A stretch of DNA of 64,000 nucleotides from Bacteroidota bacterium (GTDB lineage Bacteria > Bacteroidota > Bacteroidia > Bacteroidales > GCA-2748055). The DNA lies in the NCBI GenBank assembly GCA_043797815.1, contig JAZDPG010000004.1:25442-89441 (forward strand). Reading direction: 5' to 3'. Within the stretch, counting starts at the first letter, position 1. Every line of letters starts with the position of its first letter. This document shows positions 24,515 to 59,833 of this stretch, piece after piece. A program made the position numbers and the translations under genes. The notes under the pieces are model-generated. The model had not been told where the DNA came from, did not search any database, and saw only the letters and a list, made by a program, of their open reading frames with translations.

Positions 24515-24847
24515 ACAGCAGTTGGCTCTGTCGCTGCAGGTACATTTCACCCTGCAGAGGAAAGTCCGGGCAGCAAAGGGTGCCGCACTGTTGAAAAACA
24601 GGTATCTGCGAAGGTAGGGTAACAAAGAAGAAAACAACCGCCCTCGATGAGGGTAAGGGTGAGAAGGTGGGGTAAGAGCCCACCAGTGCAGCGGGTGACT
24701 GTTGCAGCTGTTTGTCCTGCGGGCTGTAAGGCCATGTATACCGGCGTTAAAAAAGCTACCCGCTTCTGCCGGGGGGTAGGCCGCTTAGAAAAATGACAGG
24801 GATCCTGTTTATTCAGGATACAGAACCTGGCTTATACAACTGCTGTT
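24515..24847 (+). ncRNA. rnpB: RNase P RNA, bacterial type A
   Basis: Universal P4 strands GAGGAAAGTCCGGGC (about 24548-24562) and ACAGAACCTGGCTTA (about 24821-24835). P1 pairing of ACAGCAGTTG (24515-24524) with CAACTGCTGT (24837-24846). Confidence 0.85.
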
Positions 24848-24853
24848 TTAAAA

Positions 24854-37472: not shown

Positions 37473-37600
37473 TTAAGTGCCTAGTGCCCAGTACTTAGTG
37501 CCCAGTACTTAGTGCCTTGTTCGTTTTTACTGAGTACTGAGCACTAAGTACTGAGTACTGAGTACTGAGTACTGAGTACTGAGCACTGAGTACTGAGTAC
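37473..37600. repeat. heptanucleotide (AGTGCCY / AGTACTG) tandem arrays forming a long imperfect palindrome
   Basis: The left arm carries CAGTACTTAGTGC twice, and the right arm carries its exact complement GCACTAAGTACTG followed by about 8 units of CTGAGTA. It fills the dinB-dnaE2 intergenic gap. Confidence 0.85.
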
Positions 37601-38859
37601 TACCTGTACCAATACCTATATCGCCGGTTCTTCAGATTATCCACCTGCTGGCGCTCCTCGGGGGATGGAACCGCTTTTTTCTGATCCGATTGTTCCGTGC
37701 GCTCCTCCAGGTCACTGAGCTGTATGCCGCTGGCCCTTTTGACGGCATCTGATCCATAGCGCCTGCGCAGTTTATCCACGGCCAGGTAGAGGTGTACCAT
37801 TTCCGAAGTATCCTCGAACAGATTCAGCTGCTGCACACCACGGATCAGCCCGGAAAACCGGACCCCCACAAGTCTGATCAGCATGCGCCGCCGGTAAAGA
37901 CGGTCGAACAGCTCCTTTGCAACGGGCATCAGCACATGGTCAAAGGAGGTGTAGGGAACCCGTTTCTGGAGGGTGTGTGTATCGAAATTGGAGTAGCGGA
38001 TCTTCACAGTAACAATGGAGGTAAGCTTCTCCTCCTTGCGCAGCTGGAAAGCCAGTTTTTCCACCATGGAAATAAGCAGATCGTGTAACCCGGACACATC
38101 CATGGTATCGTGCTGGAAGGTTCTTTCACTTCCGACGGACTTCCTTTCGGAATACTGGACCACAGGAGTGGTGTCAATGCCATTGGCCTTTTTCCAGATC
38201 ACAACGCCATTTTTCCCCAGCAGGCTGTCCATCATCTCCATGGGAATCTGGCCCAGTGTGCCAATGGTGCCGATACCCATGGAACGAAGCAGGTGAAAGG
38301 TCTTGTTCCCGATCATGGGGATCTTCCGGATCGAAAGGGGGGAGAGGAAGGGTTTTACCTGCATGCCCGGGATCTCGATCTCACCATTGGGTTTGGCCTC
38401 ACCGGTGGCAATCTTGGATACGGTCTTGTTGATGGAAAGCCCGTAGGAGATGGGCAGGCCGGTCTCTTTCATGATACGCTGCCTCAGCTCATGGGTCCAC
38501 TGCATGCATCCGAAGAAGCGGTCCATCCCGGTGATATCCAGGTAGTGTTCATCGATGGAAGCCTTCTCATACACCGGTGCCTGTTCGGCAATAATATCAG
38601 TCACCATCCGGGAGTAGCGGCTGTAGGCATCCATATCTCCCCGGATCACAATGGCTTCACTGCAGAGCGATCGTGCCATCTTCATGGGCATGGCCGAATG
38701 CACACCAAACCGGCGGGCCTCATAACTGCAGCTTGAAACCACACCCCGGTCCGACATGCCCCCGATGATCACGGGCTTTCCCTCAAGCTTGCTGTTTGCC
38801 AGCCGCTCCACCGACACAAAGAAGGTGTCCAGGTCCAGATGTACGATGTTGCGTGTCAT
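37600..38859 (-). CDS. dinB: Y-family DNA polymerase IV (catalytic residues intact)
   Basis: HLDLDTFFVSVE and SIDEHYLD catalytic motifs. I prefer the start MTRNIVHLDLD (ATG 38859) over the track start 38940. Confidence 0.8.
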   Translation of the reverse strand: MTRNIVHLDLDTFFVSVERLANSKLEGKPVIIGGMSDRGVVSSCSYEARRFGVHSAMPMKMARSLCSEAIVIRGDMDAYSRYSRMVTDIIAEQAPVYEKASIDEHYLDITGMDRFFGCMQWTHELRQRIMKETGLPISYGLSINKTVSKIATGEAKPNGEIEIPGMQVKPFLSPLSIRKIPMIGNKTFHLLRSMGIGTIGTLGQIPMEMMDSLLGKNGVVIWKKANGIDTTPVVQYSERKSVGSERTFQHDTMDVSGLHDLLISMVEKLAFQLRKEEKLTSIVTVKIRYSNFDTHTLQKRVPYTSFDHVLMPVAKELFDRLYRRRMLIRLVGVRFSGLIRGVQQLNLFEDTSEMVHLYLAVDKLRRRYGSDAVKRASGIQLSDLEERTEQSDQKKAVPSPEERQQVDNLKNRRYRYWYR

Positions 38860-38940: not shown

Positions 38941-38983
38941 ACCCTTAATAACTTAATAACCCAAACCCTTAATAACTTAATAA
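38941..38983. repeat. 19-nt direct repeat x2 (ACCCTTAATAACTTAATAA), each containing TTAATAAC-type sub-repeats
   Basis: Copies at 38941-38959 and 38965-38983, in the dinB/lexA-like divergent region. Confidence 0.85.
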
Positions 38984-38991
38984 TTTTTTCC

Positions 38992-39038
38992 TATATTTGA
39001 TTATATTATGATCAATAATATGATTACAATATAATCAA
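38992..39038 (+). promoter_or_regulatory. candidate -7 box (TATATTTG 38992-38999) overlapping an 11-bp perfect inverted repeat (candidate operator)
   Basis: TTGATTATATT (38997-39007) and AATATAATCAA (39028-39038) are exact reverse complements separated by 20 nt. Located between divergent dinB and the S24 repressor gene. Confidence 0.45.
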
Positions 39039-39077
39039 CCATTTTATTTCATGCAACAGTTAAAGGAGGATTTTAAC

Positions 39078-39893
39078 ATGTATTTTGATTCGAATATCAA
39101 GCTTCTGCGCAAACGCAGAAACCGTACCCAGGATGAGGTGGCCGGGCAGCTGAAAATGAAACGCTCTACCCTGAGCGGCTACGAGAACAGGGTGGCACAA
39201 CCGGGGGTGGAAGTGCTTTTGCTCTTCTCTGAATACTACAAGGTTGCCGTGGATACGCTGCTGAAAGTGGATCTTTCCAGATTGAGTGAAACACAACTCA
39301 GGCAGCTTGAACACGGCGAAGATGTGTTTCTGCGCGGGGGAAACCTGAGAATCCTGGCATCAACGGTCAACAACAAGAACCAGGAGAACATTGAACTGGT
39401 ACCTGTGAAAGCACAGGCTGGCTATACAAACGGTTTTTCCGATCCGGAGTACATCAGCGAGTTGCAGGTTTACCATTTGCCTTTCCTGTCCGGCGAAAAG
39501 AAATACAGAACTTTTCAGCTGCAGGGAGATTCCATGCTTCCCATCCCAGCGAAGGCCTGGGTCACCGGGGCTTATGTGCAGGACTGGATGACTCTGAAAA
39601 CAGGAGAGGCTTGCGTGGTGCTGACTGTTAGTGACGGGATTGTCTTTAAGATTCTGGAGAACAGGATTGAAAATGACGGTAAGCTTATCTTATACTCTTT
39701 AAACCCGCTTTATGAACCCTATGAGATCGACATACATGAAATAAGGGAAATATGGAGGTTTGTACACTTCATCAGCAACGAGATCCCGGATCCCATTCTG
39801 CCGGAAGACCAGCTTGTACGCACGGTAGCCAGCTTAAAACAGGATATGGACCGGATGAAAATGAAAATGAAAGGAGAGGGGAGTGGCAGCTAA
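39078..39893 (+). CDS. XRE-type HTH + S24 peptidase (LexA/CI-like autocleaving repressor)
   Basis: HTH region RTQDEVAGQLKMKRSTLSGYENRVAQP and S24 catalytic motif LQGDSMLP, with a downstream Lys (VFKIL). AGGAGG lies 8 nt before ATG 39078. Confidence 0.75.
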   Translation: MYFDSNIKLLRKRRNRTQDEVAGQLKMKRSTLSGYENRVAQPGVEVLLLFSEYYKVAVDTLLKVDLSRLSETQLRQLEHGEDVFLRGGNLRILASTVNNKNQENIELVPVKAQAGYTNGFSDPEYISELQVYHLPFLSGEKKYRTFQLQGDSMLPIPAKAWVTGAYVQDWMTLKTGEACVVLTVSDGIVFKILENRIENDGKLILYSLNPLYEPYEIDIHEIREIWRFVHFISNEIPDPILPEDQLVRTVASLKQDMDRMKMKMKGEGSGS

Positions 39894-40598: not shown

Positions 40599-41324
40599 AT
40601 GTGCTTTACAATTGAAGTTCATCTGACGAGGAAAGCCATCGAAAAAAGGTTCTCGGTAGACACATCTGCCCTGTACGATTTTGATTTTAACTATTTCTAC
40701 CGGGCTTTTGCCAATCCAATGATTCCGGTGATTACAGGAGATCAACCCGGACTGGTGAACCTGATGCAATGGGGATTGATCCCTTCCTGGGCCGGAAACA
40801 GAGTGAAAGCCGAACAGATAAGAAAGGGGACTTATAACGCAAGGGCAGAGTCGCTCCATGAAAAACCCTCCTTCAGGGAACCTCTTGTTAAAGGAAGGTG
40901 CCTGATTCTTGCACATGGATTCTTTGAGTGGCAGCATAAAAAGGATGCCAGGATACCCTGGTACATCAGGCTGAAAGATGATAAACCATTTGCATTTGCC
41001 GGACTGGCCGATTCCTGGCGGGATCCGGAAGACGGATCAGTTCACAGGACCTGTACCATTGTTACCACGGAGGCCAATCCACTGATGGAAAAGATACATA
41101 ATACAAAAAAAAGAATGCCGGTCATTCTTCAACCTGAGAATGAAAGAGACTGGATATCCGGTGATATTTCACTGCTTAAGGCCAGGCAAATGTTGTTGCC
41201 CTTCAATCAGGATGAGATGGTTGCCCATACAGTATCTCCTGCCATTTCCGGTTTACATGCCGATCCGGGAGACCCTGAAATCATTCAACCCTATAATTAT
41301 CCGCTTCCAGAAACGTTGTTTTAG
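40599..41324 (+). CDS. SOS response-associated peptidase (SRAP/YedK family, abasic-site sensor)
   Basis: Starts Met-Cys (MCFT...), as this family requires. TYNARAES, HGFFEW and TTEAN...KRMPVIL motifs. The track start 40584 (TTG) is rejected. Confidence 0.85.
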   Translation: MCFTIEVHLTRKAIEKRFSVDTSALYDFDFNYFYRAFANPMIPVITGDQPGLVNLMQWGLIPSWAGNRVKAEQIRKGTYNARAESLHEKPSFREPLVKGRCLILAHGFFEWQHKKDARIPWYIRLKDDKPFAFAGLADSWRDPEDGSVHRTCTIVTTEANPLMEKIHNTKKRMPVILQPENERDWISGDISLLKARQMLLPFNQDEMVAHTVSPAISGLHADPGDPEIIQPYNYPLPETLF

Positions 41325-41430
41325 GCGAGCGGTTCAATTTTACTATTTTGATATAAAATTAGTTACAGGCTTATTAACCATTTGTTAATAAATCATGTTG
41401 ACTCAATGTTCAATTCTTCGACTGATTTTC

Positions 41431-41462
41431 TTTGGTGCGAGACCACAAAGCGTATATTTTTG
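41431..41462 (+). promoter_or_regulatory. Bacteroidetes-type promoter (TTTG, 20-nt spacer, TATTTTTG)
   Basis: TTTG at 41431-41434, a 20-nt spacer, and a TAnnTTTG match at 41455-41462. Confidence 0.45.
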
Positions 41463-41467
41463 ATTCT

Positions 41468-41893
41468 ACCAAGTGAGCGATAAAAGGCCACTCAGTTCTT
41501 TAAATGATTCGATCATAAGTAGCCGGGGCAACCCGGAAACGTGAACAGAGTCACCAGGACAGATAAACAGGTATTGATTCTGTCCCCGCCGGTCTTCGGA
41601 CCGGGCTGTTGACTGGAGTACCGGATGAGCTGTAAAGGCTCATCAGGAGATTCAAAACGGAAACCGTAGAGTACCTGAAAACGCGGAAGAAGTTGTTAGC
41701 AGTTGAGCAAGGGAAACTGTCTTCGGACAGCAAACTTGCAAGTTATCCGATTCGTCGGATGGCAAAAGGGAATTCAGGACTTCGGTCCGGTCTTCCGGTC
41801 ACAATAACCGTAGCTTGGCACGACTTAGCGACTACGGTAACTAACGAGTGGAATGGGAACCAGATGCAAATTTGGCTCCCATTCGTGTTTTAT
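41468..41893 (+). ncRNA. unassigned, highly structured ~420-nt RNA candidate
   Basis: Nine compact hairpins, four with UUCG loops and one with GCAA, plus a terminator-like hairpin at 41852-41883 followed by GTGTTTTA. No credible ORF. The 5' end is inferred from the promoter only. Confidence 0.5.
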
Positions 41894-41902
41894 ACCCCCC
41901 AA

Positions 41903-42018
41903 CTCAGTGCCCAGTGCCCAGTGCCCAGTGCTCAGTGCCCAGTGCTCAGTGCCCAGTGCCCAGTTTCCAATTCAAACTTTTTTTGCACACCAAGTACTAA
42001 GACTGAGTACTGAGTACT
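41903..42018. repeat. heptamer array (CYCAGTG x9), spacer, then AGTACTG-type units
   Basis: Read directly: CTCAGTG CCCAGTG CCCAGTG CCCAGTG CTCAGTG CCCAGTG CTCAGTG CCCAGTG CCCAGTT ... GTACTAAGACTGAGTACTGAGTACT. Confidence 0.85.
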
Positions 42019-42242
42019 CCCTTCTTTTGATAAAAGCGGGCAGTTTTATTATAAATGGCGCCAAAACCTCCCACCAAAGAACCTTTACTTGTGCGAAGAG
42101 GGGCTACGTGTTAAACCACATTGTATCTTCGCATATATTTATATATCCTCATTATCATTTGGATACCAGGTTATTAGAACAATTAACAGGAAAGGGTTGA
42201 TATCCCATGAATGAACTTTTCCTTCCATTTTTGTTATAACAG

Positions 42243-42293
42243 TAGCTTTGTAAAAGAGACAAGAGTTTTGTAGAAGAAGCAAGTGTATTGTAG
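42243..42293 (+). promoter_or_regulatory. TAGCTTTG -7-like box plus three TTGTAR hexamers phased every 20 nt
   Basis: TTGTAA at 42248, TTGTAG at 42268 and TTGTAG at 42288. The 17-nt units TTTGTAAAAGAGACAAG and TTTGTAGAAGAAGCAAG are similar. Lies 18-65 nt before GTG 42311. Confidence 0.3.
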
Positions 42294-42310
42294 TTCGTAT
42301 TCCATTCAAT

Positions 42311-43639
42311 GTGAAGAAATTTTTGGTATTTATTTTTCTGTTGTTTCTCTTCTTTTTTGGTGAGATAGCGCTAACCTTTTCGGATAAAGGTTATCCTTCG
42401 CTGCTGCATGATGAAGAGGTTCCTTTTTCCCTGATGCTTGATAATCAGTTTTCCTCTTTTCAGGAGACGGATGTCATCGATAACCAGGTGAGCAGCTTTC
42501 TGAGCAGATGGAGGATACAGGGCGCCAGTGTGGCCATTGCCAAGGATGAGCGGCTTGTTTATGCCAAAGGATTTGGTATTGCCAATACCGAGACTGGTGA
42601 AGAGGTGAAACCGGGACACCTGTTCAGGATCGCTTCCGTTTCAAAGCTGATAACAGCAGTTGCAATTATGAAATTGGTTGAAGACGGATTCCTGGATCTT
42701 GATGAGCAGGTTTTCGGTGAAAATGGGATACTGAACGATACGGTTTATCAGAAATACAGGGATGTAAGAATTGAAGAAATTACCATCAGACATCTTCTGA
42801 ACCATACTGCCGGGTGGTCAAGGTATTCGGGAGATCCCATGTTCAGTTCATTGTATATTGCCAGGAAGATGGATGTGGAGGCTCCGGCAGATTTCAGCCA
42901 TGTGCTTCAATTTGCCCTTTCCAGAAGACTGGATTATAAACCAGGAACAAAGTACAGTTATTCAAACCTGGCTTATGGTATCCTGGGGGAGATCATAGCA
43001 AGGAAAAGTGGTATGACATACCAGGACTACGTGGTAATGAATCTGCTTTTACCTCTGGATATTCATGACATGCATATTGGCAGGAGCTTCTATCAGGACA
43101 AATATCCCAACGAAGTAGGGTACCACAGCAGCGCAGGAAAGATGACGGCCTATTCAATCGATGGTTCAGGGGAGAAGGTACCCATTTATTATGGTGGAAA
43201 CAATATAGAGTTGCTTGGTCCGGCCGGTGGATGGGTGGCTTCGGCTCCCGAACTCATTAAATTCCTGACAGCCATAGATGGATTTCCGGGACAGCCTGAT
43301 ATTCTGAAGGAAGAGACCATTCAGCTCATGGCGGATCCTGGGTTTTCTGGCAGGGGATTGTTTGGATGGCGTGGAAGCGACAAGTATGGTAACTGGTGGA
43401 GAACTGGTTATCTGACCGGATCAACTGCCTTGATGGTCAGACAACAGGATGGATTGGACTGGGTGGTGATGATGAATACAAGCACTTATAAGCATTCAAG
43501 AATTCAAAGGTATGTCTCTGGAATGATGTTCGGCGCAGTAAACCATGTCAGCGACTGGCCTTCCATTGACCTGTTCAGCATGGAGACCGATAACCCGAAT
43601 CCCATTACAGAAATTCCTGCAGCGAATCCCAAACTTTAA
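42311..43639 (+). CDS. serine hydrolase, beta-lactamase/PBP4* (class C-like) family
   Basis: N-terminal TM/signal segment, S-x-x-K motif ASVSK, and YSN motif (YSYSNLAYG). Confidence 0.8.
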   Translation: MKKFLVFIFLLFLFFFGEIALTFSDKGYPSLLHDEEVPFSLMLDNQFSSFQETDVIDNQVSSFLSRWRIQGASVAIAKDERLVYAKGFGIANTETGEEVKPGHLFRIASVSKLITAVAIMKLVEDGFLDLDEQVFGENGILNDTVYQKYRDVRIEEITIRHLLNHTAGWSRYSGDPMFSSLYIARKMDVEAPADFSHVLQFALSRRLDYKPGTKYSYSNLAYGILGEIIARKSGMTYQDYVVMNLLLPLDIHDMHIGRSFYQDKYPNEVGYHSSAGKMTAYSIDGSGEKVPIYYGGNNIELLGPAGGWVASAPELIKFLTAIDGFPGQPDILKEETIQLMADPGFSGRGLFGWRGSDKYGNWWRTGYLTGSTALMVRQQDGLDWVVMMNTSTYKHSRIQRYVSGMMFGAVNHVSDWPSIDLFSMETDNPNPITEIPAANPKL

Positions 43640-43697
43640 GACAGATTATATCGCAGGCTGGGATTTTCCTTATATATTTAGGGCTTCAGTACTGAAC

Positions 43698-44621
43698 ATG
43701 GAACTATCGTCCATACATCATGTAGAATCAGAAAAACTTACTGATTTTCAAGCCGATCTGTTTGTATCGACTTTGAGTCACGAATCCCGCTGCATAGCCA
43801 TTGCAAAAATGCTGGAAGGTATGTCATGCCGGAAAGTTGCTCTTTCCTCTGCTGATGAACTCAATGATTTCGCCTACAAGGAGAATCTGGATTATTACAA
43901 CTTGCACGGTTTTGAAGTCATGTCAATTCATCATGAAATTCCGGATATAGGTCAGATCATGAAGGGGATTGATTCAAAAGAGGTGCGGATTATATTTGAT
44001 TGCACCAGCATGTCCCAAAGATGGTACTATGAGTTTTTCAGCTGGTTTGCTGAGAGCCAGGACAGATTTGAAAACGTTACCCTGAGATTTGTCTATACCT
44101 TGGCAGGATATGTAAATGATGACTCCCCGAAAAAAGTAAAAAAGGTCAAGGAATTCCTGAAAATTGAGTCCCGGAAAAAGAAGTTGAAAAAGGCTTTGAT
44201 TCTTGGACTTGGACATGAGGCCAATGTTTCAGAATCCATATACAAAATTGAAAAGCCGAACCTCGTCTATCTCTATTATGCTGATCCTCCTGTTGACAAA
44301 CGGTTCGTTGACCAGGTTTTTGTGAACAACCATGCACTGATCAATTCAACACCCATACGTAACCTGATTGCCTATCCCATAAACAACGGACAGTCTATCT
44401 ATCAGAGCCTGATTGATACAATCCTTCCTATCCGTGATGAATACTCCATTACGCTGATTCCCCAGGGTCCGAAGATCTTCTCTGTGGCATCCATGTTGGT
44501 GCAGATAGGATACCCCGATATAATGATCAGTTATCCTGTATTCAAAAAGACACAGTTAAGTGACCGGCAGCCTTGCGGTGAGCCGGTTGTACTCGACGTT
44601 TATTTTGAGGAGGAAGAATAA
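43698..44621 (+). CDS. hypothetical protein, no recognised family
   Basis: ATG 43698 avoids the overlap with the upstream gene. 307 aa. Two alpha/beta-looking halves joined by a Lys-rich linker (KKVKKVKEFLKIESRKKKLKK). AT-rich. Confidence 0.5.
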   Translation: MELSSIHHVESEKLTDFQADLFVSTLSHESRCIAIAKMLEGMSCRKVALSSADELNDFAYKENLDYYNLHGFEVMSIHHEIPDIGQIMKGIDSKEVRIIFDCTSMSQRWYYEFFSWFAESQDRFENVTLRFVYTLAGYVNDDSPKKVKKVKEFLKIESRKKKLKKALILGLGHEANVSESIYKIEKPNLVYLYYADPPVDKRFVDQVFVNNHALINSTPIRNLIAYPINNGQSIYQSLIDTILPIRDEYSITLIPQGPKIFSVASMLVQIGYPDIMISYPVFKKTQLSDRQPCGEPVVLDVYFEEEE

Positions 44622-59641: not shown

Positions 59642-59833
59642 ATGAAAGAAGGTAAAGTAAAATTCTTCAATGAATCCAAAGGTTATGGCTTCATTAAAGA
59701 CGTCGAATCTGACGAAGAGTATTTTGTCCACGTATCTGGTCTGATCGATAAGATCAAGGAAGATGACGATGTAACTTTTGAACTTACAGAAGGACGCAAA
59801 GGATTAAATGCAGTGAACGTCAAACTTATATAG
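59642..59833 (+). CDS. cspA: cold-shock domain protein
   Basis: GKVKFFNESKGYGFI (RNP1) and FVHVSGL (RNP2). Confidence 0.9.
   Translation: MKEGKVKFFNESKGYGFIKDVESDEEYFVHVSGLIDKIKEDDDVTFELTEGRKGLNAVNVKLI

Follow-up and report, generated by a model that had tools for sequence, protein, structure and literature searches.

Large, deeply conserved structured RNAs are rare, and to our knowledge each of those characterized so far (RNase P RNA, transfer-messenger RNA (tmRNA), signal recognition particle (SRP) RNA and 6S RNA, as well as OLE, ROOL, GOLLD and raiA) revealed new biochemistry. The raiA motif RNA, OLE, ROOL and GOLLD are large, highly conserved, pseudoknotted products of stand-alone genes that were found by comparative analysis, and raiA RNA occurs in housekeeping contexts, its function not being deducible from its neighbours. 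The same description fits a gene of ~425 nt at positions 41468-41891 on the plus strand of the window, by which we mean the whole 64,000-nucleotide stretch of Bacteroidota DNA analysed here (GenBank assembly GCA_043797815.1, contig JAZDPG010000004.1, positions 25,442 to 89,441). As judged from the DNA sequence, this is almost certainly a genuine new structured RNA gene. Very probably it stands alone and encodes a stable, highly structured noncoding RNA that acts in trans and is the first described member of a new and vertically inherited family.

The RNA gene and its family

The RNA gene is flanked by a SRAP gene (40599-41324, plus strand) and a gene for a serine hydrolase of the beta-lactamase family (42311-43639, plus strand). 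For neither of the two flanking proteins did an exact look-up return a record. A preliminary description of the window had placed an undescribed, structured RNA of ~420 nt on the plus strand of this interval and had seen no credible open reading frame (ORF) in it. Both statements hold: the interval matches no Rfam family, it has abundant covarying homologues, and neither a credible ORF in the interval nor a coding signal among its relatives was found.

The boundaries of the gene were drawn from conservation, promoter spacing, the predicted fold and the match to the family profile. The block 41371-41895 is conserved among relatives, reaching 100% at 41471-41490 and 41851-41870 and 99% at 41871-41890, and conservation collapses beyond 41895. 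Because 3-5 nt separate the promoter box TAnnTTTG from the first conserved base of the RNA, the 5' end would be A41468 or an adjacent base, one base ahead of the closing helix P1, and the 3' end probably falls within the U tract of the terminator. The window contains a single copy, which matched the family profile in nhmmer with E = 5e-156. Folding of the plus strand gave an energy of -157.7 kcal/mol (z = -6.2), a stability that 100 dinucleotide shuffles never reached; the minus strand gave z = -4.2.

A decayed gene or a small ORF was rejected on the lengths of indels, the absence of periodicity and the lack of a conserved frame. Gap runs among relatives are 1, 2, 4 and 5 nt long, which is not the indel pattern of a reading frame, and the variability at the three frame positions (0.135, 0.110 and 0.113) shows no three-base periodicity across relatives. 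Open stretches are modestly longer than in mononucleotide shuffles (median of 95 vs 76 amino acids).

Scans against Rfam 15 (4227 models) were run at the gathering threshold and at permissive settings. The only match in the window that passed the gathering score was class A RNase P RNA at 24515-24850 (203.7 bits). Region 41300-42320 yielded three chance-level matches at E<=10, none of them relevant. Eighteen diverse relatives gave no match at the gathering score and 15 further diverse relatives none at E<=1, so that no family was matched by the interval or by any of 33 relatives. ARAGORN found neither a tRNA nor a tmRNA in the window, and the literature searched contained no description of the RNA family or of the palindrome that lies upstream of it.

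These scans bear on the housekeeping RNAs, and the earlier judgement that the RNA is not tmRNA, SRP or 6S RNA, and that RNase P RNA lies elsewhere, was borne out. tmRNA was ruled out by ARAGORN, by the lack of an Rfam tmRNA match and by the lack of a tRNA-like domain or tag reading frame. RNase P RNA was ruled out by its own full-length gene and by the failure of the interval to match its model, and 6S RNA is made very unlikely by the lack of a match to the 6S and 6S-Flavo models, the multi-branched consensus folds of nine clusters and a family length of 333-546 nt. A functional analogue, or an extremely divergent 6S-like, tmRNA or SRP RNA missed by the Rfam models, would accord with the single copy, the vertical inheritance, a placement among housekeeping genes (for example behind the rpoA-rplQ-eno cluster), the strong promoter and the paired ends. 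We nevertheless consider this very unlikely, given that ARAGORN detected no tmRNA or tag, that no 6S, tmRNA or SRP model matched at E<=10, that RNase P RNA is located at 24515-24850, and that the RNA has a multi-branched fold where a 6S-type molecule would form a rod around a central bubble; it also lacks an acceptor/T-arm and a CCA end.

Homologues were sought with SRAP as the anchor in 79 loci from species-representative genomes, most of them metagenome-assembled genomes (MAGs) of Bacteroidales, Bacteroidia or Bacteroidota and a few from other phyla. A full-length nhmmer homologue was present in 43 of the 79, on the SRAP strand every time, usually 110-180 nt past the SRAP stop codon and 1-4.5 kb away in more distant loci. 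The invariant 5' motif AYCARGTGAGNGWWWAAARGCYNC was found in 42 of these loci, and a scan of metagenomes for this motif returned at least 120 contigs; all 120 contigs among the matches listed were confirmed by the profile, 116 of them at both ends. The collection amounts to at least 144 full-length copies (at least 125 unique) of 333-546 nt, which form 17 clusters at 70% identity. Three features mark the family, namely the 5' motif AYCARGUGAGNGWWWAAARGCYNC, an RCYUGR partner near the 3' end and an AAUGGGA...UCCCAUU terminator, and 41468-41891 contains them all.

A search for carriers through enolase homologues recovered MAGs only. Two of these carriers have 5' motif variants, AAAAGTCC (L200, 5400-5800) and AAAAGACA (L201, 5450-5925), that the scan pattern missed, and the pattern-based count therefore underestimates the family. 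The ribosomal-protein genes of L201 look fragmented, probably through frameshift errors of long reads. The RNA family is thus widespread and vertically inherited in environmental Bacteroidales/Bacteroidota, and a conserved RNA gene of 330-550 nt has been left unannotated by Rfam-based annotation in many environmental Bacteroidales genomes.

Scanning viral contigs for the 5' motif gave no match, and BLAST against phage and plasmid collections found nothing similar. These results count against an RNA that serves a mobile element or a defence system as its guide or template, such as an omega RNA, a bridge RNA, a retron or the remnant of a group II intron, to which the RNA has a superficial likeness in its size range and structured ends. 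In addition, no transposase, nuclease or reverse transcriptase gene lies nearby, the RNA is single copy and syntenic, and Rfam intron and HEARO models were not matched. On these grounds omega RNA/HEARO, TnpB reRNA, IS110 bridge RNA, retrons and group II introns were all rejected, and such an origin is largely refuted, retaining next to no probability.

Secondary structure and covariation

Alignments were prepared with MAFFT (L-INS-i or E-INS-i) and folded with RNAalifold cluster by cluster; the helix coordinates given here come from the cluster containing the window, which comprises 56 unique sequences. When run separately on nine clusters, RNAalifold returned the same architecture. In the window cluster, 126 pairs were 96.8% paired, and double changes occurred at 47 pairs and in 294 cells, against maxima of 30 pairs and 112 cells in column shuffles. 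Sliding the partners by one or two columns reduced pairing to 28-43%. The covariation called for by the preliminary description is therefore present. A family-wide test of the clamp, in which the 5' end of each of 121 sequences was joined to its 3' end, found 95.2% of cells paired and 389 double-change cells, compared with a shuffle maximum of 176.

The RNA is predicted to close on itself through helix P1, in which CCAAGU (41469-41474) pairs with GCUUGG (41813-41818) thereby tying the 5' end to a position ~70 nt short of the 3' end. Across the 121 sequences, one P1 pair occurs as A-U (80 sequences) or G-C (41) and never as a mismatch, and another is distributed as CG66/UG28/UA27. Next to P1 lies the internal loop of the clamp, an asymmetric and conserved element in which GAGCGAUAAAA (41475-41485) faces ACAAUAACCGUA (41801-41812; family consensus AauAAC.GUA), both strands being nearly or wholly invariant in an alignment of 42 sequences and in a cluster-weighted consensus of 125. 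Helix P2 follows, formed by GGCC (41486-41489) and GGUC (41797-41800), with family-wide pair counts of GC101/AU8, GU63/GC53, CG117 and CG51/UG38/UA3. The closing helix proposed earlier, CCACTC with GAGTGG, is wrong: CACUC (41490-41493) pairs locally with GAGU (41548-41551), and the closing helix is P1.

P2 encloses a variable multi-hairpin core (41490-41796), which was resolved from per-helix pair counts and whose length and content vary between clusters. Its hairpins, all on the plus strand, are at 41504-41516, 41523-41536 (GCAA loop), 41557-41585, 41589-41604 (UUCG loop), 41616-41653, 41664-41686, 41707-41739 (containing the UUCG hairpin 41717-41730), 41742-41763 (UUCG) and 41769-41796 (containing the UUCG hairpin 41778-41787). 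Much of this core had been read correctly by eye. The four UUCG stems at 41589-41604, 41717-41730, 41745-41760 and 41777-41788 all covary among the 56 relatives, the third extending to 10 bp at 41742-41763, and covariation also supports the GCAAG/CTTGC stem (41707-41711 with 41735-41739) on which the second is stacked, the GCAA-capped CCGGG/CCCGG stem (41523-41536) and the GGACAGA/TCTGTCC stem (41557-41585). Part of the GATGAGC/GCTCATC stem is retained, although the full stem is not, the consensus pairs being shorter. Two other proposals gave way to different pairings: CCGU of the supposed ACGG-AAA-CCGT hairpin (41664-41667) pairs instead with GCGG (41683-41686), with compensatory changes, and the arms of the supposed ACCGTAG/CTACGGT stem belong to different elements, the first to the conserved junction and closing helix and the second to the tip of the 3' hairpin.

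The core is predicted to contain a pseudoknot between the loop strand CAGGUAU (41568-41574) of hairpin 41557-41585 and GUACCUG (41671-41677). Its seven contiguous pairs are 98-100% paired in the 56 sequences. A compensatory change supports it: 41571/41674, a G-C pair in 52 sequences, is A-U in the other 4, which represent three different backgrounds.

The 3' part of the RNA comprises a hairpin (41819-41850) with a UACG-capped tip, abutting both P1 and the terminator, and the terminator itself (hairpin 41851-41884, U tract 41886-41891); P1, the 3' hairpin and the terminator are contiguous, with zero unpaired bases between them. The stem of the 3' hairpin covaries (CG26/AU19, and GU/AU/GC at its base), and its C(UNCG)G tip is retained. 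The terminator-like hairpin noted previously, AATGGGAACCA/TGGCTCCCATT at 41852-41883 followed by GTGTTTTA, is present and conserved family-wide. In its lower stem, AAUGGGA/UCCCAUU, six of the seven pairs never vary among the 121 sequences and the top A-U pair is distributed as AU113/GU7/GC1, whereas the upper stem covaries (AU56/UA56, CG58/UA39). A simple terminator scan missed this hairpin because its loop exceeds the limit of the scan tool.

Promoter, upstream palindrome and genomic context

The promoter assigned to the RNA in the preliminary description is present as described. By its sequence it is of the Bacteroidetes type, with a -33 element TTTG (41431-41434) and a -7 element TATTTTTG (41455-41462; consensus TAnnTTTG) on the plus strand. 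TTG or TTTG stands at the equivalent of the -33 distance in 136 of 160 loci, and the TAnnTTTG box at its characteristic distance from the RNA in 153 of 160.

Further upstream lies a palindrome of 20 bp, TTATTAAC-CATTT-GTTAATAA (41371-41391), with a 5-nt spacer. Its family consensus, TTATTAACAATTGTTAATAA, is centred ~86 nt ahead of the RNA 5' end, and its positions are near-invariant across the 17 clusters in cluster-weighted logos. The core TTGTTNATAW was found in 140 of 157 loci tested, and in 124 of the 140 its distance to the RNA 5' end is 85-86 nt. With up to 3 substitutions allowed, 2.0 Mb of fetched loci contained 65 copies upstream of the RNA and 2 elsewhere, the latter being additional upstream copies at the RNA loci L055 and L082. 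Between the palindrome and the -33 element are two GTTnAT-like direct repeats on the plus strand (41397-41415), TGTTGAC at 41397-41403 and TGTTCAAT at 41408-41415, and the cluster-weighted upstream logo likewise has conserved tGTTnAT and GTtnAt blocks. The palindrome is presumed to be a private operator for a DNA-binding regulator and, together with the two direct repeats, suggests that a dedicated regulator of this kind sets the level of the RNA.

Two other explanations of the upstream elements were rejected. A replication origin or cluster of DnaA boxes is not consistent with the absence of a GC-skew switch, nor with an element that travels with the RNA across contexts, and a general feature of stable-RNA promoters is not consistent with the RNase P promoter, which has no such palindrome.

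In the window the RNA adjoins a mutagenesis cassette of dnaE2, a Y-family polymerase gene, a gene for a LexA-like HTH-S24 protein and SRAP, and a link to these damage-response genes had been considered possible. It is not supported. SRAP linkage is kept in the closer clusters, to which it is confined, and is lost elsewhere: SRAP is missing from at least 44 metagenome loci whose upstream sequence extends 900 nt or more, and in about 30 carriers, including contigs of 4.27 Mb and 2.15 Mb (L200 and L201), the RNA lies between rpoA-rplQ-eno and ubiD-PP2C. The remaining carriers have other neighbours, some of them on the opposite strand. Gene neighbours thus differ among lineages and are housekeeping genes. 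Neither the palindrome nor the RNA promoter matches the Bacteroidetes LexA motifs GGA-N5-TCC and CTAA-N5-TTAG (PMC8565304), and the RNA promoter has no counterpart of the twin TGATTA-N5-TAATCA operator conserved at the promoter of the LexA-like gene. SOS control of the RNA was rejected on these grounds and on the lack of conservation of the TTAATAAC repeats at 38945-38976.

The same variation in neighbours bears on a cis-acting leader, that is, a riboswitch or attenuator that would control a downstream gene through the conserved terminator. The conserved sequence of the terminator stem recalls some expression platforms, and in the eno-ubiD context the downstream gene is as near as 63 nt, a distance measured to a representative ORF that is over-extended upstream. 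The genes that follow the RNA are, however, not constant, being a beta-lactamase-family gene 420 nt away in the window, ubiD in other carriers, and genes on the opposite strand in yet others. No conserved pairing was found that could replace the terminator, and the size and closed architecture of the RNA are atypical of leaders. We therefore regard a cis-acting role as highly improbable.

Several further features of the window were recorded. The promoter of the LexA-like gene (39051-39893; promoter at ~38993-39040) has two TGATTA-N5-TAATCA palindromes directly after a -7 box, TATATTTG; the first copy is degenerate in the window (TGATTATATTATGATCA), and both palindromes are conserved ahead of the LexA-like gene in the upstream regions inspected, which are a sample of those of the 55 related loci. 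This pair is probably an SOS-type operator of the mutagenesis cassette, and its half-sites are unlike the published CTAA-N5-TTAG motif. Between the Y-family polymerase and LexA-like genes (38945-38976), TTAATAAC occurs three times in exact form and once more as TTAATAA within a 24-nt tandem duplication; 48 of 55 relatives have no such repeats, which are probably a local duplication.

Heptamer repeats occur just past the RNA terminator, (CAGTGCC)x8.6 and (AGTACTG)x3.9 at 41905-41964 and 41993-42018, and between the dnaE2 and Y-family polymerase genes (37482-37601), where (TACTGAG)x10.6 is accompanied by TAGTGCCCAGTACT x2.5. A tandem repeat follows the RNA in just 16 of 130 homologous loci; the repeats look like a genome-wide intergenic type and were rejected as a part of the RNA. 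Further downstream, an ORF of 358 amino acids (43545-44621, plus strand) overlaps the end of the hydrolase gene and has no Pfam match; 51 related loci have kept it, two genes downstream of the RNA. A gene for a cold-shock protein of the CspA family begins at 59643 (plus strand) with MKEGKVKFFNESKGYGF.

Possible functions and comparison with known RNAs

Invariance is concentrated in the clamp and the lower stem of the terminator, whereas the body of the RNA varies by more than 200 nt, which makes the clamp and terminator the likely functional surface. This pattern leads us to propose, tentatively, that the RNA is a scaffold. A canonical Bacteroidetes promoter would drive its synthesis and an intrinsic terminator would end it, its level being set through the private operator. 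The transcript would then close on itself through P1, followed by the invariant asymmetric loop and P2, and P2 would enclose a lineage-variable bundle of tetraloop-capped hairpins locked by the loop-to-strand pseudoknot. The clamp (P1-loop-P2) and the terminator might together offer a conserved partner, most likely a protein, a platform on which to dock, so that the RNA would act as a ribonucleoprotein scaffold or a sequestering RNA and not by base-pairing with mRNA or by regulating neighbouring genes.

Several points weigh against this picture of a new RNA gene and its product. The gene model was built from DNA sequence and not from transcript measurements, and the covariation statistics came from our own scripts with shuffle and slide controls, not from R-scape on an Infernal alignment. 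The few short pairs that RNAalifold placed inside the internal loop show no covariation. All carriers are uncultured, being MAGs or metagenome contigs, and their taxonomy is coarse. No protein gene was found to be consistently adjacent to the RNA, and none is an obligate neighbour. The case for the scaffold is the pattern of conservation, and that pattern would also suit the core of a ribozyme, an interface for RNA-RNA assembly or a pocket for a ligand.

The first two of these form the basis of a different proposal, in which the RNA would be a ribozyme or a protein-free RNA assembly and the invariant clamp its catalytic or RNA-RNA interface. A large, pseudoknotted, tetraloop-rich RNA with an invariant internal loop is what such a molecule might look like, and the lack of a linked partner protein gene points the same way. 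RNA-only complexes, for which a preprint indicates a precedent from cryo-electron microscopy in ROOL, GOLLD and OLE (bioRxiv 10.1101/2024.12.08.627333), also speak for it. Against this, the RNA resembles no ribozyme or ornate RNA model in Rfam, it has no evident substrate or cleavage site, and the body that would build an assembly varies between 333 and 546 nt. We consider the proposal unlikely.

A more speculative possibility, and a quite unlikely one, is a new ornate RNA class with its own transcriptional circuit, in which the clamp would be a catalytic or ligand-sensing core or, alternatively, a decoy that titrates the operator-bound regulator. The decoy draws on the heptamer TAATAAC, which is common to the RNA strand CAUAAUAAC and the operator half-site GTTAATAAC; the sites compared are the invariant 3' clamp strand (C)AUAAUAAC (41801-41809) and the half-site at 41384-41392, the window copy of which reads GTTAATAAA. 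This sharing may be due to chance in A/T-rich sequence or may hint at operator mimicry. Such a circuit, if real, would amount to an RNA-protein feedback switch with no described precedent in Bacteroidota.

Whichever function applies, the scaffold being the one we favour, the family is an addition for Bacteroidota, a phylum with poorly charted RNA biology. It also offers resources for experiments and structural work: upwards of 120 diverse sequences, a pseudoknotted fold backed by covariation, inferred transcript ends and a presumed private operator.

Comparison with known systems places the RNA beside, and apart from, three groups. 6S RNA, a rod-like fold of ~180-200 nt with a large central bubble, and Ms1 resemble it in being trans-acting RNAs of the abundant type with paired ends, a strong promoter of their own and a plausible role in sequestering protein; the new RNA is about twice the size of 6S RNA, has a multi-branched core in place of the rod and bubble, and does not match the 6S model. 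RNase P RNA and tmRNA share with it a closing helix at the 5' end, conserved core sequences, variable peripheral hairpins, pseudoknotting and vertical inheritance. The new RNA nevertheless lacks the tRNA-like domain, tag reading frame and CCA end of tmRNA, and its conserved sequences lie in the clamp and terminator and not, as in RNase P RNA, in an internal catalytic core. With respect to raiA, OLE, ROOL and GOLLD, the new family does not match their Rfam models, occurs in Bacteroidota whereas theirs are found mainly in Bacillota and Actinomycetota, and has a closed 5'/3' clamp and an invariant terminator stem; unlike many copies of ROOL and GOLLD, it is not associated with phages. By its sequence and predicted fold, the RNA in the window thus appears as the first described member of a new RNA class, of a standing comparable to that of raiA, OLE, ROOL and GOLLD yet unrelated to them.

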